Assembly (NCBI GenBank): GCA_000934665.2 | Contig: JYFJ02003168.1 | Coordinates: 1-45,743, forward strand | Length of the DNA: 45,743 nt | From: Catajapyx aquilonaris | Taxonomy: Eukaryota | Direction of reading: 5' to 3' | In this document: one piece after another, positions 4,391-44,283 of the stretch | Layout of the letters: each line of letters opens with the position of its first letter | Numbering within the stretch: the first letter of the stretch is position 1 | Program-made: the position numbers and the translations under genes | The notes under the pieces: model-generated | Seen by the model: only the letters and a program-made list of their open reading frames with translations | Told to the model about the DNA's origin: nothing | Database searches by the model: none

Positions 4391-6602
4391 CCAGTACAGG
4401 GTGAGACTATACATTTCGTTCCGTTATTGTATTTCCATATCTTTATGTCTCGGATAGTACAGAATCTGTACATGACTGAGTACGGTTGTCAATTTCCTTG
4501 TTGCAGTCCATCACTTGATGGTTGCATGTCCCTTTTCCCCCCATATCGGCAGTGTAGGGGTCTACGAGTAATTTTATGGCGGGAGATGGGGGATGGGGTG
4601 GTGGAAAAATAAAATAAAAAAAATAAGAAGGCGGGAGGGCGCGTGTTGCTTCCTCGTGAAAGTAAAGTGTCTCACCTTCGGACTGGGAGTGAGTGTGTGT
4701 GTGTGGATAGTTGGCCTGGCAGGTTCTCCCTCCTCCACCTCCCTCTTCCCCCCCCCCTCCCCCCCTCCCCCCCTCGAAGGCCGATCCGACCTCTTTTGCA
4801 CCTGCTGCTGGCAATAAGCAAGAAAGCAAGCCCGGCACGCGACCCTCGACGTGTGTACGTGATGCGTACCTAGGCTGGCAGGCACGTGACCTGACACACT
4901 AACTACTACCTGCCTCTCATTCCTCTGCTGCTGCCACACAACAACAGACACACACTCGCCCACACTATACACTATGTCTGATATTTAGTCAATGCCAAGG
5001 CATGTATTATCAGATATATCCGAATTGTTATGCCGACCGGTTGCTTTCATTCCGAGCGTGCGCGGAATATACGCGGACTCTATAGCCCCCCGGATTACAT
5101 GATTGGTGATACACCTGCTGTGGTCAACCAAGTTTCAATAATAGCCAGAGTTTATTTCGAGAAGTCAATTCAAATGAACGTATAATTTGGTCAAATGAGT
5201 CGCATGATACATCATTTATGCAGTTTTTAACTAACTTACTTCGAACCGTCACATCAGTGCCACTCTGCACTTCATTTGAAAATAAGTGGAAACGTGACAA
5301 TTCTTTCGAAATATTAGGGTCTGAAAATTGATGATTGTATTACGGCAGGATTGTCTTAACATTTCTGCAGCAGGCAAATCGTACCAGATAGTCAAAGACT
5401 GATCGTCCTGCATTTACCGGCCTTCAATAGTTTTTCTGCTTAGATATTATAATTTCCCTTCAATTGACAAGTACACCCTCCTCCTACGTGAGTCTTTCCG
5501 ACCAGTGCATGACCAGGTGCCAGCTCACGTCACATAGACGCTACCGGAGTTGGGCCCAGCCAAGGGCATGTGTGATCAGCGTGATTAGTGTACGCGAGTG
5601 GCCTACCGGTAATCTGGAAGCTTGAATAATGATCCCAATAATTACGGCAGGGCAAGGCACGCAAAAAAAAGGGAGAGAAACAAATGGTGTGGACTTGAAC
5701 TGGGGATCAAAGTCATCAAACTGGTTTCTTTTCCAATCAGTTCAAGTCCGGTTGGAAAAGAGAGAAGATACAGGAGCTAGAGGAAATTTCCAGAGAGTTC
5801 AGATGTCCGCCACTCACGGCGCAGTGGGCGGAGGAACAGGCGGCTCCATCTGACCGCGAGTACGTAAAACAAGCACGTGATGGGCAAGGATGCAACTGGT
5901 AGGCGATCAAGTATTAATTGGCAGCAATCAAGCAATCCCGAGGGGATTAAAATGCGTACGACGGATCACATTTGCATTTGACTATTTGGCAAAACTTACT
6001 ATAGAAAAACCCTCGTTTCGCTCGCCTTTTTTCCTTATTTACTGATGTGGCTCAAGTGTTATTTTTTGAAAGTAAAAGGGCGTTCCACCACTTCCAGTAG
6101 AACCATTCCCTATCGGAAGAAGCGGCAGGTAAATGTCAAGCGTGCACTTTTAGCCTTACATTTCCTCCGGTTTATTGCCCTGGTGCTTTTAAAAGGTCCA
6201 TAACCACCTTTTTAATGGCAGGCAATTAGGAGCCTGAAAATTATGCAAGAGGGCTGCGTACTTTGCTTATAGATGCATCAACAATGCCCACGATATCTAA
6301 TTATGCGTGGAAAGTATTATTTTGACTTCTGGTAACCGCAACTGGTGGATTCAGCAGTTGGGGACCCCGCACGTTTATCTATATGTATTTGTATCTGCTG
6401 AAAGATATAGGTGTGTATCCGCTGGGAAGGAGCGTTAGGTTGGTACAGCGTGCCCCTACCCCTGCCACGATTCACCTGGTAAAGGTGCCTTATTGGTGGG
6501 TAACCTCCAGACCAAATATAATTATGTAGACCATATCAGCTTCACATATTTATTACAATAGTTTTTTCGGGATTGTTACATAGTAGGCGTCGACACCGAT
6601 GA

Positions 6603-7481
6603 TTAGTAAGGTGGAGTTGTTGGAGGAGGGTAGTACTCGGTGGTGTAAACAGTAGGCCTGGTCGGGTAGGTGCTAGGTCCGGTGTTGTAGCACTTGGCGT
6701 ACAGATGAGGCACGCAGTTCTTGGGGCACTCGTACTGGTCCACCCTGTACATCTGGGTGATGTCCACGCCCCATCCGGTCAGCTTGGCCCTCAGCCTCTC
6801 CACCAGCTTGTCTGGCAGGCAGTCCCTCCTGGCCCAGATGAAGGCGAAGTGGAGGACCGTGCCGTCTCCGTGGTCCTGGCAGAAGGAAGCTGCCAGGTAC
6901 TTGGTGTAGTCCGTCTCGATGCCAGTCAGGCGGAACTCGCCTGAAAGCACAGTGGGTTAGAAGAAAATGGAAACGTCTAAATGCTCTCACCATTTGAGCC
7001 TCGGTCGCACGACCAGTCTAGTCGTGCGACCGAGGTTCAAATGACGTAAACAGGTCTTAAAATGCCAAACATACATCCGCGGATGATGGCAAAAGCGTTG
7101 GTAGGATCTGGAAGCTCGCATGCGATGGCGGTGGACAACCTATGGAAGCAGATTCCGTCGTAGTTGACTCCGGTACCGTTGGCCTGAATGGAGTGTGGAC
7201 CCAGCTGCACCACTCGCTCTCTCAGACAACGTCCCTTGTCCTGCTGGTTCGGGCTCAGGAAGTCGATCACGTACCAGTCACCAGTGATCTAGATCGGACA
7301 AAAAAAATATTAATATTGGAGAAACTATCAGTACATCTTGTATACGCTTTACCTTGGAGAGATCCAGGTTCCGGACGCCGTGCAGGGTGCCACACTGGTT
7401 GGGCTTGGTCGGAGGGTACCTGCTGGCACCGGTGCAAGCCACGGCTGCCATCACAACGATGATCCAGAGAGAGGAGGCCAT
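6603..7481 (-). CDS. Secreted lipocalin (ApoD/insect bilin-binding-like fold), Cys-rich, paralogue A
   Basis: Exons 7481-7353, 7288-7075, 6940-6603; GT-AG introns of 64 and 134 nt in matching phase. Signal peptide MASSLWIIVVMAAVAC. Lipocalin motifs LDLSKITGDWYVI (GxW), ETDYTKY (TDY) and FIWARR. AATAAA at 6549-6554. Confidence 0.9.
6991..7043. repeat. 53-bp intronic palindrome (23-bp arms, 7-nt loop), in intron 2 of lipocalin A
   Basis: catttgagcctcggtcgcacgac-cagtcta-gtcgtgcgaccgaggttcaaatg, one mismatch; a related copy lies at 11959-12015. Confidence 0.9.
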
Positions 7482-8674
7482 TCTTGCTCTTCAGTGTCGA
7501 ATGTGACTGGTTGTAGGGAAGGAAGGAGGCCTATTTATCTGGGCTCGGGTTGTGCTGAGGTCCCGGATAATTAATGTTGATTGGAGCCAAGGTAGGCAAA
7601 AAAACAAGGGTTTACGCCGCCACGATACTGGTTATAGGCTATTAAGCTGGTGTTAACTGTTCCCGGAGCTTTGATGATGGCCATTCGCAGCTATACAGGA
7701 ATTAATATTCTGCGCAGTCGGCTTTGCTTCCGCTAAATCAGTGCTTCTCAAAGTGCGGTCCTTTTATTTTTAACCACTTCGAAGTGTAGCCATTGAAATA
7801 CGTAATGTGGCAAACACTCGCATTAATTCGATATTGTTACCAAAAAAGTTTATGTAAGTTATAGAGCAAAAGCACATGTTGCCTTCCTGGAATCTGATTG
7901 GGGCTCCCAAATGTGGTGTAATGATAATTTCTACCTTCGTGAATAATCAATTTCAGTTGGGTACACACACCTCACCGAACTGCGCGTTTTTCTGTTTGTT
8001 TGTTTCTGCGAATTCACCAAGCATTAATTTGTTGATATTTTTGGCATGATAACGCCTTCAGTTCTGCGCACCTGAACGAGCCGTTGAACAACAAGATCGA
8101 CCTATGTGCAATTAAGGGGAAAATAACTTCAATAAACATTTGCGATGCATTCGAGATTACAGAATACTGTATAGTAGCTGACGCCACAATAAGCGTTGCC
8201 GGAATTGTTGATGTATTGGTGACAGTCATTGTTGCCCTTTGCACTTCGGTTCTCTTTAATGAATGGTGCGATTAACATATTAATTTCAAGAAATACATTT
8301 CAAATTACTGTATATGTAAATAATTGAGAGGTATATTTTTTATTTGTATTTCCTTCATCAGAAATTCAGAATGCATTTTTTTAAAACTGTCATTAGATGA
8401 CATGCTTTTCACATTATACTTTGACGTTGCTGAAAATAATGCTTTTGCAATGAAACGGTGAAGCTAGACAAGAAGTAAATCTTTATTTCGTATAGATTGA
8501 ATGCACGTTACAGACATTCAAATTCGAGCATCAGGGAGTTATTATACGTACATAACTTTTTACATCATTGCTAAGGCATAAAAAATGAAAAAAATCCAAC
8601 GCAGGTTACGAAGAAAGAGGCGGTGGTGAAGGCAATAATAATTCTTTCGTGCATCTCAGGGAAGCGAATAATCC

Positions 8675-10778
8675 TCATTTTGATGAATTCGTTTTGCTTG
8701 GCGGTTTGCTTTTGCTGTACATCTCTAAGGTCAGTGCAATGGCCGAAAGAGATATTCCTACGAGCCAGAGTCCAAAAACGGAGGCCAACTTTTCAAAGGT
8801 GAGGAGACTCGTCAGGTCAAAGAAGGAAGCCTCCGGATTCTCCCTCCTCTTCTTGAAGAATCTCCTGACGAAAGTGTGGTGGTTGATTCGCGATTCCATT
8901 GCATAGTACAGGCCGCTTTGGGTAAAATGCATCCAAAGGCCGTTGAAAGAGTGGTAGAAAACATTGTCCCGACTGAACCCTTGGCCGAGATAAACAAGAA
9001 CCATGGGCTCCGAAGTCAATATTGTGAGTTGTCCCGTCCCGTCCAGAAAGTAGTCTCTCTCCTGGCGGTATTGGAAATCAGATGTGATGCAAGCAAAGTC
9101 TTCCTGAAGAGTCCTCTCCAGACAGTCGTGCATGGTGGGAATTATTTCAGCGCTGTCAGATAGTTCGCGCTCTACGATCATTTCATCTGAAGCAAATCGG
9201 AATACAAGAGACGCAATGAGTAATACAATATCTGTGGTTCCCTTTTTCATGACGGACTGGTGCAATTCCTCTGTTGTCCTGGGCAAAACTTCATTCGGAG
9301 GAAACGTAATGAACGACACTAACTTTGATTTGTATGCGCAAGTAATTACCATGGAAAACCAAAAAACAAATGCAATTAAAATATTCGTGTGTATATTGGC
9401 TTCCAAAGGGCAGTCTGATTGTTCCAGCAACACCCGAAGGAGTATTTTCATCATTTCCCCCCACATTGAAATTTTTTGAAGTGTAGGGTAGAACCACCTT
9501 AATTGACAGGGACGATACGTCTTGACAATGTGCATAAAAGTGGCAGTTATGACAAGTGAAACACCGAGGCACATCCAGACAGACAGAGTGAAGGGTTTGA
9601 CAATGACATACCATTTGATGTCCATCCTCGGTGTCCTCGTGACAAATATTCCGTACGCAGTAAACAAAGGGTGAGGAATAGCTAATGCTTTCACCCAAGT
9701 GTCAGAGTAGATGATGGGCACCAGCATGGAGAGGTTACCGAACACGACGCCTCTGAGTGCCCCAGACAGGCTGCCATTCGGGTGAAAGTCCGAAACCGTG
9801 AGATCCGGGACGACGAAGGTTATGCGAACGTTCAATTGGTCTTCAGTCAGAAGGGCCAATTGCTCTTCAACCAGTACGTCTTGGTCGTGCCTTTTCTTTT
9901 CCCGAGCACTATCGGTGTCTATGTGAAACACCAGAGATCCCATTGTCATCTTCTTGCCATTCATGTTTCGAGGAGGTTCAGGAAACAGCACCTCCCTTTT
10001 CATCTCCTTCTGGTCCAAGAATGGATACTCAAAGGGTGCGTTGAGGACGTCCTCCCCCGACGAGTGGCAACAATAGCAGACGTTGTTGAGGACCTTCTTC
10101 CCAGTGGTCCTATTGAACAGGGAAAGCATCTTGAGCTTGATTCCCTGGACAGGGTCGGACAGCAGAAAGCGAGTGGCATCCTGGGTGGAGAAGAGGTGCA
10201 GGAGGAAAGGGTCATGCAGGTTCCTGACCATGAAGAGGGCAGCCGAGGTCATGACCAGGCGGGGCACCCTGTCCCCTGATCCTTCCTTGGCCAAGATGAG
10301 GTTGAATGCGCACCTTCCTCCGGGCCAGACTCCGGACCTCATCTCTGGAGGCTGCGTCCTGAAGGAGAGGAGATGCTCCCTCTTCCACACCCAGGGGTAG
10401 TCCTCCGGGTCAAATGAAGGGTCAGAGGTCGACCCATCCACCAGGGCAATCATGACTGGTCGGTCAGTCTTTCCCTCCGCCCAGGCCAGCACCCTCTCCA
10501 GGTCCCTGCTCAGGTCCGGGTGGTCCATCCCCAGGGTCAGGGAGCAATCCGGGTAGTTGGTCGAGAGGAGGTGCTTCACCAGCGATGCCAACTGGTTACT
10601 CTCGGGGTCGGAATCAGGGAGAAACTTGGCTGCCATCAGGTTCTCTCCTGCCTGCAAGTTTATCATGGACTGATTTAAGCGGTTCATCGAAAATGCATAA
10701 TTCCTTCATAATATTATCTAATATTCTTACCGATTGGAGGATGCACATCACCACGGCAGATAATGCAACAAGCAACAT
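8675..10778 (-). CDS. Divergent ionotropic receptor (IR, chemosensory iGluR-related)
   Basis: Long exon 10651-8675 carries M1 (KPFTLSVWMCLGVSLV), pore segment (LLRVLLEQS), M2/M3 (FWFSMVITCAYKSKLVSFITFP) and a final TM (LTFEKLASVFGLWLVGISLS). A short exon 10778-10731 (MLLVALSAVVMCILQS, donor GTAAGA at 10730) supplies the signal peptide, so the ORF-track ATG at 10687 is probably intronic. An alternative in-frame acceptor lies at 10670-10671. Confidence 0.88.
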
Positions 10779-11358
10779 GATGAATAGCAGTGCAGTGCTT
10801 TTCCCGTTTCAGACCAACACAAACGATCCACTGTAATATTCCTAATGGTACTTCTGTTCCCTAGAAATACCGCTGTTGGTGTGATACGTGTTGCACATAA
10901 TATTTGTACAGCTATTGAGTAACATACATATGGCTCTTAACATTTCCCCCAAATCAGCTGTGTACTTTCCTTGAGAGAATATTTCCGAATGTTTGTTTGG
11001 AAGGAGTGCGCATGTCTCTAGTAGTCTAGTGTAATGTAAGCAATAATTTACCGCCTCATATTAGTGCTACTGACCTCTTTACAGGCTGCTTTCGTCTCCA
11101 TTAAACTCTGCAAATCCTGCAGTTTTTTTAACATACAATATACTGTGAGATTATGCAGAATATTAATTACCACAGTGTCTCCCTCATTTCAAGCATATAG
11201 GAATACAATATTACGTGTAAATTTTGTTCCAGTAGATTTGGACAACTTTTGTTCCAGCAAGTATATAGAAGAGCATTCGGGACATTATTGGGTAATGTAC
11301 TGCAATTTCTTAACGACAATTTTATTTATTGGCACCAAGAGAGTATACAAGTTTTTGA

Positions 11359-12253
11359 TTAGTAGACAGGTGGAGTTGAGCCGTAGCACTTGGCGTAATT
11401 GTAAGGTATGCAGTTCTTGGGGCACTCGTACTGGTCCACCCTGTACATCTGAGTGACGTCCACGCCCCATCCCCCGAGCTTGGCCCTCAGCTTCTCGATC
11501 AGCTTGTCCGGCAAACAATCCCTTCTGGCCCAGATGAAGGCGTAGTGCCGAACCGCACCCTCACCGTGGTCCTGGCAGAAAGAAGCTGCCAGGTACTTGG
11601 AGTAATCCGTCTCGAAGCCCGTCAGCCGGTACTCGCCTGAAATCAAACGTCGTTAGGTGATGGTATCTATTATACAAATGGCCAATGATGATGGACTTAC
11701 ATCCTCGAATAATTGCAAAGGCGTTGGTAGGGGTTGGAAGCTCGCAGGCGATGGCAGTGGACATCCGATGGGAGCAGATTCCGTCGTAGTTCAGCCCAGA
11801 TGTGTTGGTTAGGATGGAGTGTGGACCCAGCTGCACCACACGCTCTCGGATGCAACGTCCCCTGTCCTCCGGGTATGGGCTCAAAAAGTCCAGCACATAC
11901 CAGTCACCAGTGATCTGAAACGTCGTGCACATTTTTTGCAATCAGACCTCAAGGGCTGACGATTTGGAGCCTCGGTCGCAAAGGCTTCTGGTCGTGCGAC
12001 CGAGGCTCAAATCGTGAGGGCATAAACTTTGTATTTTAATTACTAAACAGCAAGGTGTGTAACATTGCTAATAAAGAAGGACACAATTTACCTTAGGTAA
12101 CTCGAGGTGTTGCCCGCCGTGGAGTGTGCCGCACTTGTTCGGTAAGACGACCACAGGAGGAGGAGGAGGCTGCAGAGTCGTGTACTTGGCCCCGGAGCTG
12201 CCCGAGGTCCAAACGGCTGCAACAATGAAGAGGGCAGCCCAAAAGCACGTCAT
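11359..12253 (-). CDS. Secreted lipocalin, Cys-rich, paralogue B
   Basis: Exons 12253-12092, 11914-11701, 11636-11359; introns of 177 and 64 nt. Exon 2 is 214 nt as in paralogue A, with the same intron positions. Motifs ITGDWYVL, ETDYSKY, FIWARR. AATAAA at 11325-11330. Confidence 0.9.
11959..12015. repeat. Intronic palindrome homologous to 6991-7043, in intron 1 of lipocalin B
   Basis: acgatttggagcctcggtcgca...tgcgaccgaggctcaaatcgt. Confidence 0.85.
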
Positions 12254-12309
12254 TGTTGTTGCTGGCTGGGGGCAGTCACGGGTCGTTAACGGAGCGTGTC
12301 AAAGCAGTG

Positions 12310-12346: not shown

Positions 12347-13351
12347 GCGATATTCAGAGGGACACAGCATGTGCTGAGTCTCTGGAAAGCACCACCAGCT
12401 CGGCCGATTTACGCAAACGTAGACAGATAGCGAGGGTTTTATGGGGTCTGCACCGCTAACTAAGCTGGCGACGTTTCATGGCCGGGAAACAATCCATATA
12501 CTGACGAAACCATGTTTTGACATATTTCAGTTACATGGTTCCGTGGTCGTGTTCAGCATGTCGTGAAACGCGGAAGGCATCGCGAATAATTGTTGCGCAG
12601 GGTGTAATACTGCCAAAGTACACCGTCAAACGGGGATTAAAACAGGGAGAAGTAACGACTTGTTTACCACAGTAAGCAAACCACGCTAGAGAAACTGTTT
12701 GCAACTTGATTATTATTAAGAGGCAAAGAAGTCCCCTTTACTGGACTACGAACTTGAATCGGAGTGTATAATTATTATATGCAAGTTCTGATCAGGTTAC
12801 ATAATCACTTTCTCTATTGAATAAAAATAGATAGCGCAGGTTCACGCCCTTGTTACGTAAGAAGAGCTTGATGGCTGCAAAAATATGCTGAGAGGTATAG
12901 AATGCGTAAGAGGCATGCGACTGGGTTTTACGATTCGGTGGAGGAGAGTTGAAATAATAATAATTGCGGGTGTGTGACATCGACCCGGATTTCAATCATA
13001 CCGGGGGATTACTTCATTCTCATCGTGAATATGATGAGCGATAAGGATGCTTTCTCCTCTATCCATAAAATGATCCTAGATAATCGTGTTCAAATGGCGA
13101 TCATATAAATATAGCTTCAGTAGGTTACACATAAAAGAGCTCATAGAAATAAGTCTCATTTAAGTATAGGGGCAATTTCTTTTCCTTGGCGAGTGAGATC
13201 TCAGAGGTATTGAAAGAAGCTCTGAGCTGACTGCCTCTTTGGTAAAAGAAAAATGTTGTACAGATCTCGCAAGTCACAACTGTGTCATGAAACAATGCAC
13301 TAATGAAAAATCAAGTTTTATTGTTCCAGCACACATACACTGAATAATTTT

Positions 13352-15102
13352 TCATGGCACATGCTCAAACCCAAACGGCACCTGGCGGTGCTTCAGCCAT
13401 TTTGGATAGGCTTGGTCGAGGAGAACTATCTGGCTCACGGTTAACTTGCCGCTTGTTCTGTGAAGAAATAATATAACTTGTGTAATTTGCGCAAAACACT
13501 TTCAGCGGACCACTGTTTCCTTACCGCGGGTGCTTGATGCAGAGGATTTTTTCCCTTACTAAAAAGGCCATGATCTTTGCTGCAGTTGCCATGTTAACAG
13601 TCAAGTACGACATCAGATCTCTCTGGTTGACCGTGTCTTTGCCCCGGAGATGATCCAGAACCCGGCGGATTCTACACGTCATCTGCAGCCGGTGATAAAA
13701 ACAATGTGTATTGCAGCAGGGTGGTGCACAGCCCAAGGTTCCTCAGTTAAACAATCTATAACATTTCCAGTGTTGGCTTGCAAATTTGACCACACTGCAG
13801 GAGAAAAATTGTTCGCTTCATTTCCAACGCGACAAACTCCGAAATATCCGAGTCGTCATCGCTCCTCACACTGAATCATCTAGAATACTCTAGAATAAAT
13901 GCGCTCTGGATATAGCTTTGCAATGAGACTCATATACAATGAATGTAATAAATCCACTTAAACACTCGTAAGTATGATGTTCACCAAATCAGCGAACAAT
14001 TTCCTCCTTCCAGGGGCCAGTTCATAACCCTTACAGACATGCTTGCCACCTCTGATCTGTACCTGGGCATCCTCTGGCTCCATGTCCAAGAGGGTAGGGT
14101 CCCTGCATGACAGTCCTGGGTTGTCTTTGGCACATCTCAAACAAGTGTGAAAACCATCGAACTTTGGCGCTAACTCCAGGAAGCACACCTGAAAGTCACC
14201 AAAAATTAATTGCACTATGACCCACTTCCGTTCTCCCAATCCGTCTATACAGGATGTTCCACAACGTTCTATATAGGGCGAACTCCTGAGGATAAGAGTA
14301 TCACTTTTTGTGGAGCCTTCATTTGGTACCTAAACGCTGGTTACCAATGATTGGGCCTCTAAATGTGCTGCAAAATATTTTGGCAGTTTCACTTACATTC
14401 TAGGAGTCACCATGCAAATTCATTTTAAATTAGGACCCCCAAGATGTAGCCGTCCGCCACATAGATGGTACGATTATGAACTCTTTAACTAATGATAATT
14501 ATCTCAGAAGAGATGCTATACGCAGACCAATAGTGGCTCTATGAACCTCGAGAAGTTCGCCCAGTCAATCACTCCCAGTCTCCCAAAACTTGAAGTACGA
14601 TTAGCTTACAGCGTGCTGCCACATAGGGCAGCTGTCGCAGGCGACCATCGTTCCATCCCACGAGTTCTCCCCGCATGGGCAGTCCGTGTCATCCCTGTTG
14701 AGGCCTGTACGCTGAGGCGCGTTCCCAATAAGCTCTCCTGCAGCAATGAATCAAGTTTTATCAGGCTTGCATGTAAGAATAGGCGATTTATAAATACGTA
14801 TATAAACAACAGTGATAATGTATGTTGCTTGAGTTTCGTGAATAAAATTATTACTCTAATCCGTGCCCCTTTTCAAAATAATGACAATTTTTGTGACTTT
14901 TCTCGAGTCTGCATTTTTGCTCTTCAACTTAATTCTCTCAATATTCACATGGACATGGGAGCTGCTGTCAACTTCTGTGTTAAGTCAACTGGAGTGTACT
15001 GTAATGACTAATAATCCAATCAGTAGAAGGCTGGGAAATATTCTTACCTTGGGGGTTAGGATGGTCACCTCCGGGATTCATGTATGGTGGAATCTCACCC
15101 AT
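13352..15102 (-). CDS. 190-aa PHD finger + winged-helix protein resembling the HORMAD/Hop1 chromatin-binding region, without a HORMA domain
   Basis: Coding exons 15102-15048, 14737-14610, 14188-14063, 13682-13525, 13457-13352; all GT-AG with consistent phases (1,0,0,2). PHD C4HC3 pattern: CPC-GENSWDGTMVA-CDSC-PMWQHAVC...HTCLRC. It is followed by SCRDPTL...QMTCRIRRVLDHLRGKDTVNQRDLMSYLTVNMATAAKIMAFLVREKIL (helix-turn-helix pattern). AATAAA at 13317-13322. Confidence 0.82.
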
Positions 15103-15405
15103 CGCAGACTATCTTGCTCGTTGCTGGGTATGACCAACAATAATCGACCAACCTGGGAATGGTACTATAATACTATAATCGTTCAAAAAGATGGAGACAA
15201 TTTTGCATTGAAACTAAATGAATTTTTTTTTGACTTGTCTGAAAATTTGTACACAAGATTATTTCTCCTAGTGTAGTAATGTGTGATTTTGGAGATCCTG
15301 GGATAACCAGTCATGACTGAAAGTTTTTAAAAAATGTAGCAAGAAAAATAAAATATGTCAAAAATTTTTGCTTCATAATAATATCTCACAATAACTTGGT
15401 CAGTA

Positions 15406-15592
15406 CACAGTAAACCGCAAAACATTAAAAGAGCATCACTGGTGAGTCTCTCATGGAACATCAATTTTTAATGCTCTTGTGATGCTTTTTGTTGCTAAAA
15501 AGCACCACACGAGCATTAGAAGAGCATTAAAAATTGATGTTCCATGAGAGACTCACCAGTGATGCTCTTTTAATGTTTTGCGGTTTACAGTG
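15406..15592. mobile_element. Fold-back MITE with 69-bp perfect inverted arms and CAC...GTG ends
   Basis: 15410-15478 is the exact reverse complement of 15520-15588. Termini CACAG / CAGTG; no clean TSD seen. Confidence 0.8.
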
Positions 15593-16088
15593 CAGCTTTT
15601 AATTCTATCATAATAATTCATGTCTCATTCCAAATGGTTCAGAGCATGGTTCAGAGGTTCATAAAACATGGGATCAAAAATATCATACGAGTATTTCAAA
15701 TAATCAGGCATTTTTTTTAGATGCCACATATGTGACCTTTTTGACCTGGAGTCCTAGACTAGTTTTATTATATTACAGTACAACAGAGCACCGCTTGGAA
15801 CATTTCCCTGAAAAGATTTGGAATTTGAAGAATTTTAGATACAAAGAAAAAAAAAATTAAGAACAAAAGACACACATGGAATCTCATATTTTCCTAAATT
15901 GAGAGCAGATTCGTCAAAAATGTCCGTCGTAACCGGTAGTAACCATAGTCACTAATAATTAACTGTCATTGCGGCAAATATTTATGAATCCACCCCCCAG
16001 CCACACATTCATTAAAATTATGCGAAATTAGCGTTAGTTATAAGTGGAAAGTGGAAAAATGTGCGAGTCAATATTTAGAACGACCTAC

Positions 16089-16305
16089 CCTTGATGAGTA
16101 TGATCAAGAGTACTCTTGGTATGATGCCTTTCCCCACTCGGGCTTCTTTTCGAGGCTGGCCCCGTGTCTGCCCCTGGTCTCGCACGGCCACTGGGCTGCC
16201 CCCGGTCGGAAGGAAACGGCCTGTTGTCCTCTTTAACCCAACACAAATTGAACGAATCGAACGGAAAAGAAAATAGGGGAAAGGAAAAAAAAAAGATGGC
16301 CGACC
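16089..16305 (-). other. Probable non-coding first exon / TSS region of the PHD-wHTH gene
   Basis: GC-rich block ending in donor AAGG|GTAGGT (16088), with a matching acceptor at 15153-15154. YY1/Pho-like AAGATGGCCG at 16293-16302. Confidence 0.45.
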
Positions 16306-16320
16306 AGACGTTCCATTAGG

Positions 16321-16884
16321 AGCAGGGTTGCCAATATGACACACAACAACTATTTATATTTTTATGGAGATTTTAAAAAAACCGTTTAAAAAAAATAGTT
16401 GGCACCGTGCCTTAATTACGATAATTGGAGTAATTATATGTAACCAGAAAAATCATCAAAACTGATTAGCAGGCCCTACAGGGCCGTTTACACTAGGAAA
16501 CTTGTCAAATAACTAGTTGCGCAACTAGTTTTGTCCAACCTGAAAATACATGGGACAGATAGGAAGTTTTGCCCTGACCTGAAAATGCTCCAACTTGTCA
16601 TCCAACCAACTTTTTGGTTGTGGGTGGAGCCATAAGTTGTGGGTGGAGCCATAAAGTTTAGCTCTAGGGAGCATACTAGTTGTTCAACCTGGGAGGGGGA
16701 ATAGGGAATCCGACGGAATCCATCTTGAAAGTTCAAGGTTGGGTTGGTGGGAGGGGCGAGAAGCTGGTCACGTGGGGGGTTTTATTGCAACTAGTTGTAC
16801 AACTAGTTATTTGACAAGTTTCCTAGTGTAAACGGCCCTTACAGTTGAAGGTCACTTCAGGTCATACCTGTTGGCAACCCTGCT
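16321..16884. mobile_element. AGCAGGGTTGCCAA-ended non-autonomous element, host of a nested MITE
   Basis: 14-bp perfect TIRs at 16321-16334 / 16871-16884; no TSD recognised. Confidence 0.55.
16480..16839. mobile_element. PIF/Harbinger (Tourist-like) MITE
   Basis: 40-bp perfect TIR agggccgtttacactaggaaacttgtcaaataactagttg, flanked on both sides by TAC (16477-16479, 16840-16842). GGGCC ends and a 3-bp TSD are typical of PIF/Harbinger. Confidence 0.8.
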
Positions 16885-17489
16885 GCCAGCTGGATTTCGA
16901 ATTAATTTTTTCCCGTGCCCCGATTTTTTCCTTTTTAAAATCAATTTTAAAAAAACTCGGTTAAACTTAAACAGACTTTAATGCACATTATTTTTCATCA
17001 GACTTTGATTTGTTGCGTACAATATTGCACAGTTACNTTAGGCATATATATTTTTAAACATTTTTTTGGGGGGTTTAAATACAATGACACAAAAAATCGC
17101 CCCCTAAAAAAAATTTAGTGGGCTAGGAATGAAAATATTTTACAATATTGCACCACATCATGTGTGCTGGTTTTGCATTATTCACATGTAATTTGAAAAA
17201 GGCAAAAAACACACGACATGTAATAAACCCAGGCGATTTCTATAGTGGATTAAAAAATAATTAAAAAATTGTTAAGATGTTATTAGGCAGCCAAAAATGA
17301 GTCTCCGTTTGGCAGCAGCAAAAAAAGCCCTTGTTGTTTTTTTAACAATGGCTAACTGGGGGCAGGGTGTCTCGTAACATCCTTTGTGTAAAGTCCGACT
17401 GTACGCTTCAGATAACAGTAAATTTGATTAAGTCTGCATGAAGCTGTAACAACCTCAACATTGCTAACTAGCACGGTGACTGATAAATA

Positions 17490-17873
17490 AAAGAAATCCT
17501 GTTCCGCAATTGCCGTGGCTAAGACACCAACCTTAAAAAAATCCTAAATTTTGGGTATTAAGACTCAAAAAATTGCAGTTTTCATACTTTTCCCTAAATC
17601 AGCAGCACATAAGACATCAGTGTGCCAAAGTCCAGCACTCTCAGTAGTCGGGAAGCGGGTTAGGTAACCCAGACATACAGACAAACTTGCTGATTTATAC
17701 GCGTAAGAAAAATCCTACATTTTTGGGTATTTACACTCAAAAAATTGCAGTCTTCGGACATTTCCCTAAATCAGCAGACATTTGTGTGCCTAGTTTCAGC
17801 ACTTTCAGCACTCCGGATGTGGGTTAATTGTCCTGGACATACAGACAAACTTTCAGCTTTATACAATGTCAGA
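17490..17873 (-). mobile_element. Helitron-like non-autonomous element with a ~170-bp tandem duplication
   Basis: Units ~17536-17700 and ~17708-17864. The minus strand starts A|TCTGACATTGTATAAAGCTGAAAGTTTGTCTGTATGTCC, like arthropod non-autonomous Helitron 5' ends. The 3' end is degenerate. Confidence 0.55.
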
Positions 17874-18306
17874 TGTATGATACCATCATAATTGGGCAGC
17901 GTATAGAAATCAAACTCAGGTCTAGGCTATACCATCCAGCGAGAAGTTAAAAAAATTAAATAATCTAACCAAATACCGCATAATGAATCTCCAAAGGTTC
18001 TGTGTGCGCCTGCTTACAATAATATTAAACCATTTACAAGCATTTTTAAATGCAGGGCAATAGCAATTACTGAACCGATCACAGTCAACATCAGAGCGCC
18101 AGCACTCAAACTTACATTTGTTTAAAAGGCATGACTTGGTACTCGGAAGGACATTACGAGACACCCTGTTCGTTCATTTATTATGGGAATGTTATCACTT
18201 TCAAACGTCTTTTTTATTGCCCTCTGGAAATGAGTAGACAGCCTGTAATCTTTGGTATCGTTAAATACTGGCCACGATTTAATTTAGAGGACCTCGCATA
18301 ACATGG

Positions 18307-19153
18307 CTACTTGTACCCGCCGATGTCGGGGCAGCAGTTCCTCCTGCCCGTCCGTCCGTCCCCTGCCGCTGCCAGATTACTGGAGGAACTGGATTCCTGC
18401 GAGTAGAAGCGTCTTCTGGATAGATCCACTGTCTCCCCCAAACCAGCCGGTCGCTCCAGGCGGGCTTCCAGGCGCGTCCAGCTGTCCACGGCTAGGGTGA
18501 AAGCCGAATCCACGTTGGTCGCATCCTTCGCAGACGTCTCGACATACGGGGGTCCTCCGTTCTGCTGGCACCACTGCAACGCCTCGTCCGTCGTCACCTG
18601 TCGACTCTCCTCAATGTCCACCTGTAATTGCAGCAATTAATTAACTGCCAACGCACCCTGCAGGCACCAACCTTGTTCCCAGCAACGATGAAGGGGAAGG
18701 AGCTCCCATCCTTGACATCCGCATAGTGTAGGAACTCGTTCTTCCAAAGCATAAGGTTCTCGAAGCTCCTGGCGTCGTCCAGTGCAAAGGCCAGGATGCA
18801 GATGTCGGACCCTCTGTAGAACGGGGTCCGCAGGCTCTTGAACCGCTCCTGCCCTGCCGTGTCCCATATCTGCAGTACGTACGACCCCAGCAGTCTAATT
18901 ATACCCGCCAACAAACCAACGTCTGCGCCAGTACCTGCAGCGTGTACTTCTCCCCTCCGATCTCAATGTCCTTGTTGAGGAACTCGACTCCGATGGTGTG
19001 GAAGGAGTGGGCGTCGAACCGGTTGGACACAAACCGGTTCATCAGGCAGGACTTCCCAACCCCTCCGTCGCCCAGTATCACCACTTTCAGCAGGGTGTTG
19101 CGGCTCGACTGGCGCTGGTGCCTCATCTGCTGGGGCGTACTAGACGACGACAT
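18307..19153 (-). CDS. Rab9: Ras-related protein Rab9, 243 aa
   Basis: Exons 19153-18935, 18869-18672, 18621-18307; introns of 65 and 50 nt. Motifs GDGGVGKS, FHTIGVEFLNK, WDTAGQERFKSLRTPFYRGSD (Rab9-specific), GNKVD, ETSAKD, and CC near the C terminus. 5'UTR intron acceptor at 19155-19156. Confidence 0.95.
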
Positions 19154-19274
19154 CCTGAAGGAAATCACGCAAGTCAATCATTGTTGCCATGCTATTGTGC
19201 CGACATTACTATAGAAATCATTAATCAGCAGCAATCAACCATATCACGGGGTAGCACCAAAAAAAAACAAAAAA

Positions 19275-20139
19275 ACATTGCAACCTGTTGCCATGACAGA
19301 CCCGTTGCCATGCTAACCGGTTGCTATGCAAATCAGTGCAATGCTAACAGATTGCCATGCTAACCAGTTGCGCTAAACCGTGCCATACTAGCCAGTTGCC
19401 ATGCTAACTCGTCGCCATGCTATCCAGCAGTTGCTATGCTAAACCACTGCTACGTTAAACTGTCGCCATGCCAACTTGCTGCTATGCTAACCTGGTGTTA
19501 TGCTAAACTGTTGCCATGCTAACCGGTTGTTATGCTGAACTATAGCCATGCGCTAACCAGTCGCTATGCTAAACCATTTCTATGCTTATTCATGCCCTTG
19601 TAACCAGTTGCAATGCTAAAGCGTTGCCATGCTAACCCACTGCTACGTTAAACTGTTATTGCCATGCCAACTCGTTGCCATGCTAATTAACCTGTTGTTG
19701 TGCTAAACTGTTGCCATGCTATCCGGTTGTTGTGCTGAACTATATCCATGCTAACAAATTGCTATGCTAAACCATTTCTATGCTTATCCATGCCATTGTA
19801 ACCAGTTGCTCTGGTGAAGCGTTGCCATGTGCCAACTCATTGCTACGTTAAACTGTCGCCATGCTAACCCACTGCTAATCTAAACCGCTGCCATATATGC
19901 TAGACCTGTTGCCACGCTAAATATCTGCCATGCTAATCTGTTCCATGACAACCAGTTGCTATGCCCAAACCGTTGCCACGCTAATGAATACATTGCTACG
20001 CTGAACTGTGCTGTCGCCATTCTGACCCGTGCCATGCCAACCGGTCAGCTACGCTGATTCTGTTAAGCCGGCCAGTTGCAATGCCAAACCCCCGTTGCCA
20101 TGGACAAGCAAACAGACTTTCCCTTTCATATATTATGGA
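19275..20139. repeat. Degenerate tandem array of GTTGCCATGCTAA(C/A) units (~16-18 bp) in the Rab9 5'UTR intron, inside a Helitron-like element
   Basis: Dozens of gttgccatgctaa/gttgctatgctaa units. The right end on the minus strand reads A|TCCATAATATATGAAAGGGAAAGTCTGTTTGCTTGTCC, a Helitron-like 5' end. Confidence 0.85.
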
Positions 20140-20238
20140 TAGGTGGCTAAGCACTGTTAAGATGCGGCGTGCACACTCTTAAGGCGAATGGTGGTGCGGA
20201 GTCCCATAGCCAAGGCGTACCGTGCAACCTGTACCAAC

Positions 20239-20730
20239 CTTGTGGCTGTTTTAATCCGGCTCCTGACCTAGTGTGACCTGAGGTCAACCCTTCTTCTGTT
20301 GACCTCTTATTACGCCATGATTATTTCAAAACAACATTTTGGAGGCAGCTTATTATTATCCTTTTGATGAAGTAGTAGTAGTAGGCGTGTGTTTAGGCCC
20401 CGAATGGCGCACGCGTTCTATCGATCGGAAGCCCAGCCTAAACCGCGGTTTTAAAGTTAAACCCGATTAAACCGACGGGTTTAAAATGCGACGCAACTAA
20501 ATTATACTAATGACTAATTAAAGTGCACGGATGTGTCCTGTCCGCATGTTAATTCGGTTCAACCAGTTCTAAAATCATGTTTTTAACGATCATGCCCATT
20601 GATGCAAGTTAAGTTTTAAACTGTTCGCATTTAATAGTTTAAATTGAGGGGACGGGTGCCTCCTCCAGGCGGCGGGTGGCCGAACCAGAGAGAGAGAGAC
20701 GTTCCAAAAAGGGAAAAAAAGATGGCCGCC
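20239..20730. promoter_or_regulatory. Bidirectional promoter region for Rab9 (-) and PDZD8 (+)
   Basis: Ohler motif-1-like GGTCACACTAG on the minus strand (20278-20268) just upstream of donor AAG|GTTGGT (20238). DRE-like TATCGATC at ~20419. YY1-like AAGATGGCCG at 20719-20728 precedes a GC-rich + strand leader. Confidence 0.6.
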
Positions 20731-21089
20731 GTTCCGACCCGTCTCTTCTTCCCGGAGGAGCCCAACTCCGGAGGAGGGATCGTCTGCCCCGGGGCCAGGG
20801 GCGGGCTGTAGCTGGCAGGGCAGGCCACAGGTGATACTATACGGACGGGGAGGGGGGCAGGGCAACAACGACCAGGGGGAAGCGGGTAAAGGAGAAGGGG
20901 TTACGTAACATGGGCAAGATTTTGTTCCATTCCACCCAAAAACTGACCAGTAAATATTTATGTAATAATAATAATTGCATTTGATGTAATAATTGCCTCG
21001 GGGGGCGGTTAAAAGCACATGAAGTGGTCAACCCATGTAAGTCCACAACCGTCTGGACAAGCCAACTGTCCTTTTGAAACGGAAAACTC

Positions 21090-21835
21090 TCAACAACCAT
21101 GCTGACCAGTTGCCATGCTCAACTGCTGCCATGTTACCAACCCGTTCTATGCTACCCCCGTTGCCATGCTCAACCATTGCTACAATCAAAAACCGTTGCC
21201 ATGCTAACCCAGATTGCCAGGCAAACCTTGTTGCCATGCTAAACTGTTTGCCATGCCATAAATGTTGCCATGCCAACCCGTTAAACCTGTTGCTATGCTA
21301 AAACCGTTGCAATGCAAACCCCGCTGCCACGTCAAACCATCGCCGTCATCAACCAGTTGCTATGTTAAACCGTTCCTAACGCATCGCCAAGCCAAGCTGT
21401 TGCCGTGCTAAACCGTTTTCCATGCTACCCCCATTGCTACGCTAACCCGTGCCATGCTAACCAGTTTCCATGCTAAACAGTTTCATATAATGCTAAACTG
21501 CTGATATGCCCAACCATTGCTTCAAGCTAAAACCGTTGCCATGCTAAGCTATTGCCATGGTGACCCGTTGCCATGCTAAAATGTTGCCATGCTAACCCAA
21601 TTGCCATGTTAAACCATTCCATGCTAATCCATGTCATGCTAACTGGTTGCCATGCTAACCCATTGCTAATAAGCTAAACTGTTGCCATGCTAAACCATTT
21701 CTATTCACAACTGTTGCTGCACTAATACATGCCATGCTAACAAGTTGCTATGCTAACTGGTTGCCATGCTAAACCACTTCTAAGCTACTCCCGTTGCCAT
21801 GCTAATCCGTGCCATGCCAACCCGTTGGCGGATAG
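21090..21835. repeat. Second GTTGCCATGCTAA(C/A) tandem array, in the PDZD8 5'UTR intron
   Basis: Same unit and same + strand orientation as 19275-20105. It ends ~30 nt before the acceptor ttcccttccag at ~21865. Confidence 0.85.
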
Positions 21836-21881
21836 CAAACGGTACTGAAACCCATTTCCCTTCCAGCAGAAGACCTGCGCC

Positions 21882-24800
21882 ATGATCATCCTGGTGGCAG
21901 CCTCGGTGGTCCTGGCCTTCGTGGCGGGGGTTGCGGTGACGCTGCTCCTGGAGTGGGTCTTCCTGCAGCGCTGCCTCAGGGAGGACGACGTGCCCAAGCC
22001 GACCAACGACGCGGCCGCCTTCCAGCTGCCGGCCGTCCTCTCCGAGCTGGTCAAGAACGGATCCATTGCCGAGCCAGAGTCCTGCCGGGCGCTCAACCTG
22101 CTGTGCCAGTTCATATTCAAGGAGCTGCGCAACACGGAGAAGGTTCGCAAATGGTTCCTGCGCAAGCTGAGCATGGAGTTCGAGGACCTGATCACCAAGA
22201 CCACCACTGGGAAGCTGTTTGATAGCGTCGCCATCCGGTATCTGCACCTCGGTACGCAGTTTCCCGTACTGACGGACGTGCGAGTCGAGAACGTCAAGTT
22301 GCATCAAGGAGGCCATATCGAAACGCTTGATCTCAACGTTGGGGTTGAGTACCTCGGCGGATTCCAGCTGGCGGTGGATTGCTCCATGAAGCTCGGAAGG
22401 TCTGCGTATCTCTCGGTGACTGTCACGCACTTGTCCGGACGTGCCAGGCTACGCTTCACACGCATACCCTACTCGCACTGGTCCTTTTCATTCGTATCTG
22501 AACCTGTGATGGAGCTCAAAGTTGAGTCGCAGTTTCAGGGCCGTCCACTATCACAAGTCACAGCCATCATCGCCAGCCAGATACGACGAGCCGTGCGGAA
22601 GAAGCACACACTGCCAAACTTCAAAATGCGCTACAAGCCATTCTTCACAAAAATGGACGCAGCCGCCATGCTGTACGCAACACCCGTGGCGTCGGAAGTA
22701 ATCAAGGTCACACCCGGATCTTTGGAGGTCGTCGTCGTGGAACTGACCCGCTTGCCAATAGAGGAATCCAAGGCTGCGGCCAAAGCGGCCGCCGGATCTG
22801 TGGTCAGTCCGGTGGGAATGGCCCTTTACTGCACCGCCGCAATAGGACGAGTTCCATGGGTGTCGCTGACCGTCGGGGAGCAAAGCGGCCAGGTCGTGCT
22901 GGATTTAAGCGTGGTCAAACGTGGAGCGACATCAGGTCACACCGCAGCGGCCATCGTGGAAGCGACTGTCGGGGTCATGTTTCGGCAGGAGTTTGATCTC
23001 GAAAGGGCACAACCGCGGGTCGCCATATCCAAAGTTGTGTCTGGGTCTGCTGCGGATAGAGCTGGGCTCCATCATGGCGACCTGGTCACGTCGGTTGGCG
23101 GACGGCCTGTGCGGCTGGTCTCCGAGGCTGTGAGGGCTGTCAGAGGCGCCAGAGACAAGTTCGGCCTGAGAGTTGAGAGGCGATGGGGGAATACGGCCAC
23201 CGCTTCGGGGCATCCAGGCGCGACTCTTACGGCAGGTCGTGGCGGGTCACTCCCTGGTTCGCCGACTGCTCGCGGACCACTTCCAATTGGGCTGCGGCAT
23301 CGACGAAGGTCGCCAGATATTGGTAAGTTACGTCGACGGTTGAGAAACGCAATAATTAACTCCGATCATTCCAGCCAAAGATATAGACAACGAAAGTAGT
23401 TCGTCCCAGTCCTCGTCACAAGCCGGTTCGCCTTCGAAGCGCGACCATGGGGATCATGTCCGCCGCGCATCAGCCGAGGGCAGCCCATCCGCACCGACCG
23501 ATCCGGACAGTTCCACCGAGTGGCAGCACACAGAAGTCCGTTCGACCTCTCACAAGCCAGCCTCGCTGGACGTCCACTTTGAAGAAACCCTTCTGCTGCG
23601 AGTCGCCAACGGGGACAGATACTTAAACCTATGCGTCTGGATGCAGCCGGTCAGTCCCGCCTCCAGGTCACCAAGTTCGACCCCATCGGCTCCTCCGACA
23701 CCATGGGAACCGGTTAATCACGGCAGGCCTGTACTGATAGGCCGACTGAACGTCCCACTTGCTGCGATCGCCGCCGACTGTAGCACCTCGACTATCGGCC
23801 ATTACGTGAAGGACTTTTTACTTGTGCCACCCGAGCCATCTCCCAATATCGGGTACGTACGTGTCGGGGTTTTACATTTGCAGTACATAACGACAGTTTC
23901 GATTCCAGACTGAAAAATACGCTGAGCTCACACTCTGGATTTGAAGCTTGCATGTGCTACGGCGACATAACGCTGTCGTTCATGTACAGACGCGACTCTT
24001 CTCCTTCGCCGCACCCTGGCAGTCCGACACCAAATTCCCACTTGTCCGCGCCCCCCACGACCCCATCGTCATCGCCAACACCGTCGCCATCTCCAACCCC
24101 AACGCACCCAGGCAGCACCGGTGGAAGCCCAAAGAGAAGCCTGGATGGCGAAGAGACACTTCCGGGACTGGCGCAACAGCACGACTTCCTTCGCACTCAC
24201 TTCCACTCAGCGACACAGTGCGAGTTTTGCCTTAAGAAGGTCTGTACCCGCAATTGCGTTTGAGCTGCGACTAACTTGGGCTTTTTCCTGATCAGATTTG
24301 GTTGAAGGATGCATATCGATGCCGTGCCTGCTCGCTGACCTGCCACAAGAAGTGTGTTGCCAGATGCCAGGCCAACACTGTTTGCTCGCCCAGGGGCAGC
24401 CCTGGGGCCGGGGAAGGATCAAACGCAAGTGCAGGAGACCAGGTCCTGCAGGTGGAGATCGCACAGGAGCCGGGACAAAAGCCGGATTCGCTCGAGTTTG
24501 TGCAGCCTACCGTCCGAATCTTACCGACCACACCTCAGGTATGTCGCAACGACATGCTGACAGTACAGTGTATTCAACCAGCTTTGTTTGTAGAGTGGTC
24601 GTCGCACTGTGAGCAGCCTGCTGGCGACCATGGCCGACCTGGCCGCAAGCCAGTCATCTCGTCACAGCAGCGGCACCAACTTAAAGCGAGCCGGATCCGC
24701 CACCTGCCTGGCCCCTCCGCAACCTGGTACCGGACAAGGGGCAGGCCCAGGGGCAAGTCTGGGGGCAGGAATGGGAGCAGGAGACCCCCTGCAGATGTCC

Positions 24801-28526: not shown

Positions 28527-28866
28527 ATGCCAGGGGCAGATATGGGCGACAAGACGAACCCGTTTCTTCCTGAAAACCGTATCCCGCTTCCTCCGAGCGG
28601 TGCGGCCAGATCGTGTAACCCTCCCTGGAGCGACTCGGATGATTTTGCGTCTCTGTCCCCTTGCGTTGTCCGCAGGAGGAATGAGCGTGAGAGGGAAAGG
28701 GTTAGGATGGTTAACGCAGCCTTTGACAAGCTCAGGATGCACCTTCCTGTCGTTGAGGTGGGCCGAGGAGGGAAGCAGCATGGGAACAAAAGGCTCAGCA
28801 AAGTGGAGATGCTTCGGCTGGCCACCATCTACATCCAGCAGCTGCAACAAGCGCTGAAGGATTCAG
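28527..28866 (+). CDS. Achaete-scute-family bHLH transcription factor exon (ASC-b/ASCL3-5-like); gene ends uncertain
   Basis: VRRRNERERERVRMVNAAFDKLRMHLP...NKRLSKVEMLRLATIYIQQLQQAL. Acceptor-like ttccagcag before the ATG and donor CAG|GTACGT at 28867. Unspliced, the frame ends at 28928. Confidence 0.8.
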
Positions 28867-43920: not shown

Positions 43921-44283
43921 TATGGGTCGCAAGATGCCAACAGAAAATTGGCACCATGAACCTGGCAACCCTGCTGAATCGAGTCACGTGACGACAGTAT
44001 TAGTATTTCGCACGCTTATTTGCAATAAGAGTATGGAAAACAAGCGAGCAGATATGATTCACCCTGTTGGGAGTATTTACCCGCATGCTTAAAGCGTTAT
44101 ATGCGGGACAAGTTTGCGAGCCAGCATTAAAATATATTATCTGGCAACGACTGTCAGCAACATGACGTGCGCCCAGTGACATGACGTGACGCGCTGATTG
44201 GACCTGTGTCAATTCGCATTTCTGCAGAGGGAAAAAGCCTGAAAGACCGCTCTCATCAATCACTCTCCTACGCCACTCACCCC

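Follow-up and report, generated by a model that had tools for sequence, protein, structure and literature searches.

A candidate stand-alone gene for a HORMAD-type chromatin-binding region in Catajapyx aquilonaris

The minus strand of a Catajapyx aquilonaris contig carries a five-exon gene for a small protein composed of a PHD finger followed by a winged helix-turn-helix (wHTH). The interpretation that we favour, with a little more than even confidence, is that this is a separate gene encoding solely a HORMAD-type chromatin-binding region (CBR), at a locus with neither a HORMA domain nor a closure-motif tail. The HORMAD reading of the module appears largely right, judging from a search of the PDB for the PHD and from a manual alignment for the wHTH. 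The DNA analysed, hereafter the window, is a stretch of 45,743 nucleotides (assembly GCA_000934665.2, contig JYFJ02003168.1, positions 1 to 45,743) to which all coordinates refer.

The gene runs from position 15102 to 13352. Its five coding exons, spliced in silico, join into a coding sequence of 573 nt for 190 amino acids plus the stop codon, and the four introns all start with GT and end with AG, in agreement with the intact 190-aa protein proposed in an earlier note on this DNA. The start-codon exon (15048..15152, candidate acceptor AG at 15154-15153) has a coding part (15102-15048) for residues 1-18. Its ATG (15102-15100) lies in a good context, with G at both -3 and +4, and the in-frame TAG previously reported ahead of it was located at 15111-15109, two codons being placed between them. 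Exon 2 (14610..14737) begins in phase 1 and provides the first half of the PHD (residues 19-61). The second half and the winged-helix lead-in CRDPTL are coded by exon 3 (14063..14188, residues 62-103), helices 1-3 of the wHTH including the TCRIRRVL motif by exon 4 (13525..13682, residues 104-156), and the wing together with a C-terminal helix that features the AYPKWL motif by exon 5 (13352..13457, residues 156-190), which finishes with the stop codon TGA (13354-13352). Two further minus-strand elements are assigned from reading of the sequence, namely an AATAAA polyadenylation signal at 13317..13322, 30 nt past the stop codon, and a putative non-coding first exon at 16089..16300 that is GC-rich (0.52) and followed by a GT donor at 16088-16087.

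This five-exon model exceeds chance expectation. The exons have a GC content of 0.54 and a GC3 of 0.63, the latter close to that of nearby coding ORFs (0.62-0.68); GC in the four introns is just 0.35-0.43. The two alternative frames of the 573-nt coding sequence are interrupted by 12 and 7 stops, respectively. The junction between exons 2 and 3 restores the seven-residue string WQHAVCF, which is found identically in the HORMAD PHDs of sea urchin and S. mansoni. The PHD-wHTH module spans about 150 residues and is preceded by a 35-residue amino-terminal extension. HORMADs have an additional carboxyl-terminal tail with a closure motif past the CBR (PMC10907721); in the Catajapyx protein only 11 residues follow the wHTH before the TGA and then the AATAAA, leaving no space for a tail of the usual kind, although closure motifs are short and conserved poorly. 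Homology searches were carried out on individual exon pieces of the 190-aa protein, and folding on exon 4.

The PHD has all eight zinc ligands at the residues given for them in the earlier note. C38, C40, H60 and C63 form the Cys3-His site while C52, C55, C77 and C80 form the Cys4 site, with C38, C40, C52, C55 and H60 coded by exon 2 and C63, C77 and C80 by exon 3. Their spacing, C-x-C-x11-C-x2-C-x4-H-x2-C-x13-C-x2-C, is that of a HORMAD-type finger with two zinc sites. The last loop is x14 in S. mansoni Hop1 (C284...C327) versus x13 here, the remaining spacing being equal, and a manual count against the S. mansoni row of a published alignment gives 25 identical residues out of 52. When the exon 2 piece was compared to 177,635 PDB sequences the first rank was taken by 9mug_A (31.1 bits, E 1.7e-6) and the second by 9myp_A (29.6 bits), whose record title is that of the Patiria miniata Hop1 chromatin binding region; 15 of 26 residues per finger are identical in the alignment to the Hop1 PHD. 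MLL5, ASH1L and Set3 trail the Hop1 CBR chains in this search (E 4.9e-5 to 0.018). Such matches are expected because Set3, MLL5 and ASH1L are the nearest relatives of the published CBR PHDs (PMC12365614). Pfam also recognizes a PHD in the half domain coded by exon 2 (E 1.8e-4).

The lysine pocket of the Hop1 PHD is described as having Trp at position I, Met or Leu at position II, a small hydrophobic residue at position III and mostly Asp at position IV (PMC12365614). In the PDB-search alignment Trp58 corresponds to position I (W304 of S. mansoni) and Met49 to position II, also Met in S. mansoni, which bears out the earlier proposal that these two residues occupy cage positions. D46 is placed at position IV and V50/A51 at position III, an alignment-based rather than structural assignment. 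At the level of alignment, W58, M49, D46 and V50/A51 reproduce the pocket pattern of HORMAD-type CBRs.

An exhaustive HMMER search of 1.84 billion proteins with exon 2 (E up to 0.001) matched 7 proteins, none of them a HORMAD or an orthologue. Six have tandem PHDs, of which two also contain SET, and the seventh is an unrelated protein with repeats. The scores of the tandem-PHD proteins sum two fingers, with 13 of 24-25 residues identical in each, so that the PHD half by itself does not discriminate between the HORMAD and Set3/MLL5 types. With scores of about 30 bits, HORMAD fingers would miss the reporting threshold in a library of 1.84 billion proteins, and their absence among the 7 matches is hardly informative. 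In a metagenome scan the frame containing exon 2 matched 4 loci through residues 3-29 only, outside the finger, and word-indexed protein searches with the exon 2 and exon 4 pieces gave no homologue among longer proteins.

The winged-helix half contains the CRDPTL linker (residues 89-94) and the QMTCRIRRVL helix (103-112) pointed out in the earlier note. Alignment by eye of residues 88-179 with the wHTH of Limulus HORMAD, as printed in Milano 2024, needs no gap and gives 21 identities in 92 positions, for which a rough binomial tail (single fixed register) is 1e-7 to 1e-5. A manual count for the HORMAD rows of Limulus and Zootermopsis gives a similar level of identity (about 22 of 90). Corresponding motifs, paired manually, are CRDPTL and CTDPTL of Ciona, DTVN and DTVN of Ciona, TCRIRRVL and LCIWRRTL of Limulus, and AYPKWL and AFPKYL of Limulus. 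The last motif class occurs a single time in the six-frame translation of the window when searched with patterns widened to include the protein's own residues. In the manual alignment Ile108 occupies a position where HORMADs carry Trp, Phe or Tyr. The 'FP' mark of type 2 wHTHs (PMC10907721) is absent from the wHTH here.

Programs characterize this half in more general terms. Pfam finds only HTH_39 in exon 4 (E 0.023), which does not reach its cut-off. The AlphaFold2 model of exon 4 is a three-helix HTH (pLDDT 70.6) whose structural neighbours in Foldseek and VIA are generic winged-helix DNA binders, and the region is basic (pI 10.3), which supports the prediction of a winged helix whose DNA-binding face is basic. 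The structural check suggested in the earlier note, made for exon 4, returned the winged-helix fold, with 9myp_A at rank 13 in Foldseek (25% identity, E 2.4; all E values are above 0.1), and 9myp was not found among the 50 best neighbours by VIA Z score. Comparison of the exon 3, 4 and 5 pieces to the PDB with phmmer yielded no Hop1 chain and nothing else of relevance, and the metagenome scan with exon 4 gave no match. The protein atlas associates exon 4 with bacterial and archaeal wHTH clusters at 0.88-0.89, under the 0.9 line, which is a lead only. The assignment of the module to the HORMAD CBR type is supported for the PHD by the top two PDB matches and for the wHTH by the gapless manual alignment; no program gave a significant match of the wHTH to HORMADs, so that homology of this half rests on the manual alignment.

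The gene could also be a relic of the only HORMAD gene of the lineage, a decaying or functionless fragment left after loss of the HORMA exons and of the tail. HORMAD genes have been lost in three of the six arthropods of Table EV1 in Milano 2024 (Drosophila, Anopheles and Nasonia; PMC10907721). Furthermore, the distance from the Catajapyx module to arthropod HORMAD CBRs is, by manual comparison, about the same as their mutual distance, and an orthologue of the CBR part fits as well as a paralogue. Yet a long-dead fragment is expected to have accumulated stops or frameshifts, whereas here the frame is open over five exons, the splice sites are intact, and neither the pocket residues nor any of the eight zinc ligands has been lost. 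The GC3 like that of neighbouring genes, the good context of the ATG and the polyadenylation signal past the stop also speak against decay, and we regard a relic as unlikely.

The surroundings of the gene bear on whether a HORMA domain could be encoded nearby. Ras-family exons identified by Pfam (18310-19177) lie on the same strand and end about 3 kb upstream of the CBR gene. Further upstream, on the other strand, lie a PDZD8-like gene and an HLH ORF. The interval between the CBR gene and the Ras-family gene contains a hairpin (15406-15592), a terminal-inverted-repeat element (16480-16839) and a tandem duplication (17536-17864), and a single N is present at 17037 within otherwise continuous sequence. 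Capture of a gene fragment by a transposon was considered and rejected, there being no long direct or inverted repeats around the CBR gene. Of 278 ORF pieces taken from the window, none matches Pfam HORMA (0/150, 0/108, 0/16 and 0/4 in the individual sets), and there is no HORMA signal in the minus-strand ORFs out to 45.7 kb. Four of five short motifs from the HORMA domains of arthropod HORMADs have no match in the six frames of the window, and the fifth, KKYL, is found once in an unrelated context. The in-frame TAG ahead of the ATG and the AATAAA past the stop point the same way. Neither this locus nor the remainder of the 45.7-kb window yielded a detectable HORMA-coding sequence; the earlier note had seen no room for an N-terminal HORMA domain at the locus.

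An ordinary HORMAD gene might nonetheless be seen incompletely, its HORMA exons lying far upstream or on another scaffold as a result of a long intron, a misassembly or a gap, and being spliced to exon 2 so that the ATG exon is skipped. The phase-1 start of exon 2 is in principle compatible with a coding exon upstream, and the inspected sequence spans 45.7 kb only, with the N at 17037. There is also a precedent in the HORMA-less Encephalitozoon intestinalis entry of Table EV1, for which the authors suspected gene-prediction problems (PMC10907721). Such an arrangement would have to reach across the Ras-family gene on the same strand, and then the PDZD8-like gene and the HLH ORF of the other strand, through minus-strand ORFs that lack any HORMA signal, and the N is surrounded by continuous sequence. 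It would also not account for the other end of the protein, which stops 11 residues past the wHTH, 30 nt ahead of the AATAAA, where HORMADs continue into the closure-motif tail. This explanation is, in our assessment, slightly less probable still than a relic. An unrelated small PHD protein of the Set3/MLL5/ASH1L class joined to a generic winged helix, with a likeness to HORMADs due to convergence or chance, would agree with the tandem-PHD or SET proteins that are the best whole-database matches of exon 2 and with the generic winged helix of Pfam, the protein atlas, Foldseek and VIA, but it is very unlikely given a HORMAD finger that is at least as close (15/26 versus 13/24-25 identical), a gapless 92-residue manual match after the PHD with four lineage-typical motifs in HORMAD order and spacing, and Set3, MLL5 and ASH1L matches that are expected from the published kinship of CBR PHDs (PMC12365614).

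Compared to holozoan HORMAD CBRs (S. mansoni 9mug and P. miniata 9myp; PMC12365614), the Catajapyx module shares the spacing of the zinc ligands, bar one residue of the last loop, and the Trp, Met and Asp of pocket positions I, II and IV. It likewise has one basic wHTH of equal length straight after the PHD and, in the manual alignment, matching lead-in, helix 1 and C-terminal motifs. It differs in that the module is the entire protein, without HORMA domain, long linker or the usual closure-motif tail, and in the Ile of helix 1 that replaces an aromatic residue of HORMADs. A second close parallel is the 142-aa protein Q8SWC8 (CAD25118) of Encephalitozoon cuniculi, listed in Table EV1 as a HORMA-less 'HORMAD' with a PHD-wHTH CBR only (Milano et al. 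2024, PMC10907721). Both are free-standing PHD-wHTH proteins of similar size without a HORMA domain; however, the latter comes from the reduced genome of a microsporidian fungus and its gene is intronless in print, whereas the arthropod gene has four coding introns. The two CBR-only proteins are almost certainly independent of each other. Set3, MLL5 (KMT2E) and ASH1L, whose PHDs read H3K4me2/3, provide the next-best PDB matches to the first half of the finger but lack a winged helix after it and are proteins of many times the length, with SET or other domains. The Polycomb-like proteins PHF1, MTF2 and PHF19 also place a winged-helix 'EH' domain after a PHD, together with a Tudor domain and a second PHD. 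The resemblance lies in the PHD adjoining a DNA-binding winged helix; the Tudor domain and the second PHD are missing here. A Polycomb-like PHD-WH module was rejected, as PHF1 chains score E 1.8-2.0 with exon 2 in the PDB versus 1.7e-6 for the Hop1 CBR.

By analogy with the animal Hop1 CBRs that have been characterized biochemically, the Catajapyx protein would bind nucleosomes in a bipartite mode, with the PHD packed next to the winged helix-turn-helix as in the Hop1 CBR. The PHD pocket (W58, M49 and D46) would accept a lysine of the H3 tail, possibly methylated K4, while the basic winged helix would contact DNA through helix 3 and the wing. Devoid of a HORMA domain and, apparently, of a closure motif, the protein would have no usual HORMA-closure link to the chromosome axis and would consequently be a free reader. 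The origin by gene fission or partial duplication that the earlier note put forward, like its split-HORMAD or competitor role, is conjectural. Expression of the gene, binding by its product and a role in meiosis are what we infer. A bolder and rather doubtful proposal is that the HORMAD was split in this arthropod lineage, the CBR module becoming a small protein of its own while axis assembly (HORMA domain and closure motif) was taken over by another gene or lost. The free module would then mark or mask H3K4-methylated nucleosomes and so tune the sites of meiotic breaks.

A HORMA-less CBR is already known in print from the microsporidian E. cuniculi (PMC10907721), and the arthropod case is what is added here. 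The printed cases found were microsporidian only, no paper on an animal HORMA-less CBR having been found in the literature searched. On the methyl-lysine selectivity of animal HORMAD CBRs, the 2025 structural paper states that it could not be demonstrated by in vitro assays and asks for a genetic test (PMC12365614). A natural gene for the module alone would show that a CBR can be maintained without a HORMA domain. It would also offer a compact protein with which to probe what the CBR reads and to ask if a free copy is a competitor of, or a substitute for, the axis-bound HORMAD. If the gene is a relic, it would document one stage of the losses that HORMADs have repeatedly undergone in arthropods; if the split of the HORMAD is true, nature would have carried out, in an animal, a separation-of-function experiment on the CBR.

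The PHD-wHTH gene of Catajapyx aquilonaris, which codes a PHD finger followed by a winged helix-turn-helix (wHTH), lies on the minus strand. Its coding sequence of 573 nt (190 codons and the stop) is assembled from five exons with GT..AG introns: exon 1 (15102-15048), which carries the ATG, exon 2 (14737-14610), exon 3 (14188-14063), exon 4 (13682-13525) and exon 5 (13457-13352), which ends in TGA. These splice borders and the open frame confirm the five-exon gene for a 190-aa protein proposed in the earlier note, and the residues named there are all found at their positions in the spliced product. Two codons separate an in-frame TAG (15111-15109) from the ATG, which has a G at -3 and at +4, and an AATAAA (13322-13317, minus strand) is found 30 nt 3' of the TGA. 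Exon GC is 0.54 and GC3 0.63, with similar values in neighbouring coding ORFs (0.62 and 0.68), and the introns have a GC of 0.35-0.43. The two alternative frames of the coding sequence contain 12 and 7 stops. As a guess, a putative 5' non-coding exon can be placed at about 16300-16089 on the same strand.

Fold and profile tools were run on single-exon pieces of the protein. The exon 2 piece, first half of the finger, gives half a PHD in Pfam (E 1.8e-4). When its 42 residues are searched against 177,635 PDB sequences, the top two are chains named 'HORMA domain-containing protein': 9mug_A (31.1 bits, E 1.7e-6) and 9myp_A (29.6 bits), the latter from an entry whose title names the chromatin binding region (CBR) of Patiria miniata Hop1. 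MLL5, an Arabidopsis-type PHD (1wee), ASH1L and Set3 come after them. Rodriguez et al. 2025 (PMC12365614), source of both structures, gives Set3, MLL5, PHF20 and ASH1L as nearest relatives of Hop1 CBR fingers and describes a pocket made of Trp (I), Met/Leu (II), a small hydrophobic residue (III) and mostly Asp (IV). The PDB-hit alignment of exon 2 puts Trp58 and Met49 at pocket positions I and II, respectively, in agreement with the cage positions assigned to them in the earlier note.

The zinc-ligand spacing equals that of S. mansoni Hop1 apart from a one-residue difference in the final loop, and 25/52 residues are identical, by hand count, to the S. mansoni PHD row in the supplement of Milano et al. 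2024 (PMC10907721). The identical residues include WQHAVCF, a run of seven across the exon 2/3 junction that supports the splice model. With exon 2 as query, an exhaustive HMMER search of 1.84 billion representatives gave 7 with an E of 0.001 or lower, and no orthologue in this library: six tandem-PHD proteins (two with a SET domain), whose scores sum over two fingers, and one unrelated repeat protein. Per finger, the tandem-PHD proteins share 13/24-25 residues with exon 2 versus 15/26 for S. mansoni Hop1, so the half finger alone cannot show whether it is of the HORMAD or the Set3/MLL5 type.

For the winged-helix piece Pfam gives HTH_39 at E 0.023, short of its cut-off, and the protein atlas neighbours of the exon 4 piece are DeoR- and HTH_24-like clusters (0.88-0.89). 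AlphaFold2 folds the 52 residues of exon 4 into three helices (pLDDT 70.6), and phmmer with the exon 3, 4 and 5 pieces found no Hop1 chain among PDB sequences. The class assigned by the programs is 'winged helix', without a finer one. By hand, residues 88-179 align gapless and block for block with the Limulus HORMAD wHTH row in the Milano supplement, with 21/92 identities (rough binomial tail of 1e-7 to 1e-5 in one fixed register); hand counting of the Limulus and Zootermopsis rows gives about the same identity level. In the HORMAD rows of that supplement, CRDPTL at the lead-in corresponds to CTDPTL in Ciona, TCRIRRVL in helix 1 to LCIWRRTL in Limulus and the C-terminal AYPKWL to AFPKYL in Limulus, while DTVN is identical in Ciona. 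These four landmarks keep the HORMAD order and spacing in those rows, directly C-terminal of the finger. When the window is translated in six frames, helix 1- and C-terminal-type patterns each turn up once, at exons 4 and 5, a descriptive scan and no independent test since both patterns were widened to admit the protein's own residues. The wHTH region is basic (pI 10.3). Judged from sequence, with the wHTH step made by manual alignment, the module is very probably a HORMAD-type CBR.

The claim that the locus has no HORMA domain holds within the window. Pfam matched none in 150/165 stop-to-stop ORFs of at least 45 aa at 15100-30500 (both strands), every one of the 30 minus-strand ORFs 28-44 aa long at 15100-21800, 78/142 ORFs of 50 aa or more between 28900 and the end of the window (all 67 minus-strand, 11 plus-strand) and 16 ORFs downstream of the gene. 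Four of five short HORMA motifs common to the three arthropod HORMADs have no match in the window; the fifth, KKYL, has one in an unrelated context. The protein ends 11 residues past the wHTH, too few for the closure-motif tail that HORMADs usually carry, closure motifs themselves being short and poorly conserved.

On balance, a real stand-alone CBR gene is the most likely reading. Table EV1 of Milano et al. 2024 (PMC10907721) records Drosophila, Anopheles and Nasonia as having lost the HORMAD gene, and Bombyx, Zootermopsis and Limulus as having HORMADs with a PHD-wHTH CBR. What is left of a sole HORMAD gene is an unlikely reading of this open frame. Equally doubtful, or slightly more so, is part of a normal HORMAD gene with its HORMA exons lying beyond the window. 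An unrelated PHD joined to a generic winged helix has the program classes for it and the ordered landmarks against it, and is highly improbable.

Three Ras-family exons found by Pfam (18310-19177) lie upstream on the same strand. Beyond them, the plus strand carries a PDZD8-like gene (21849-23396, on to about 24900; SMP/MMM1, PDZ and C1 pieces) and then an HLH ORF (28509-28925; helix-loop-helix DNA-binding domain, E 2.7e-15). The 3 kb from the Ras gene to the ATG hold a hairpin in the presumed 5' intron (15406-15592; 81-nt arms, 96% complementary), a 360-nt element upstream of the presumed first exon (16480-16839; 51-nt terminal inverted repeats) and, between the two genes, a tandem duplication (17536-17864; unit about 165-170 nt, copies 76-83% alike). 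The hairpin and the element look like MITE-type insertions. Sequence is continuous around a single N at 17037. On the minus strand, an uninterrupted 676-codon frame with a Lig_chan (ligand-gated ion channel) match (8678-10705) may be an intronless ionotropic-receptor-like gene. The ORF sets on either side of it (6545-7530 and 11288-12298, minus strand) have very similar peptide strings and look like a duplicated gene; Pfam matches neither set with an E of 0.001 or lower. A long trinucleotide repeat at 44185-44365 reads as poly-Asn or poly-Tyr, depending on the strand.

No orthologue of the PHD-wHTH gene was retrieved by word-indexed protein searches, the HMMER search or metagenome scans. The best matches of the PDZD8-like gene, termite and cockroach PDZD8, reach at most 44-45% identity, indicating that the protein libraries searched have no close annotated relative of the organism, which accounts for the blank orthologue searches. 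The literature searched yielded no animal protein made of a CBR without HORMA domain. Such proteins are already reported from Encephalitozoon: Milano et al. 2024 (PMC10907721) list E. cuniculi (142 aa) and E. intestinalis, the latter with possible gene-prediction problems. In the P. miniata CBR, W376 of the PHD cage and R480 of the wHTH both contribute to nucleosome binding, H3K4me3 selectivity not being shown in vitro in that study (PMC12365614). By analogy, the product of a stand-alone CBR gene would bind nucleosomes in the same bipartite manner and would do so without a tie to the chromosome axis.
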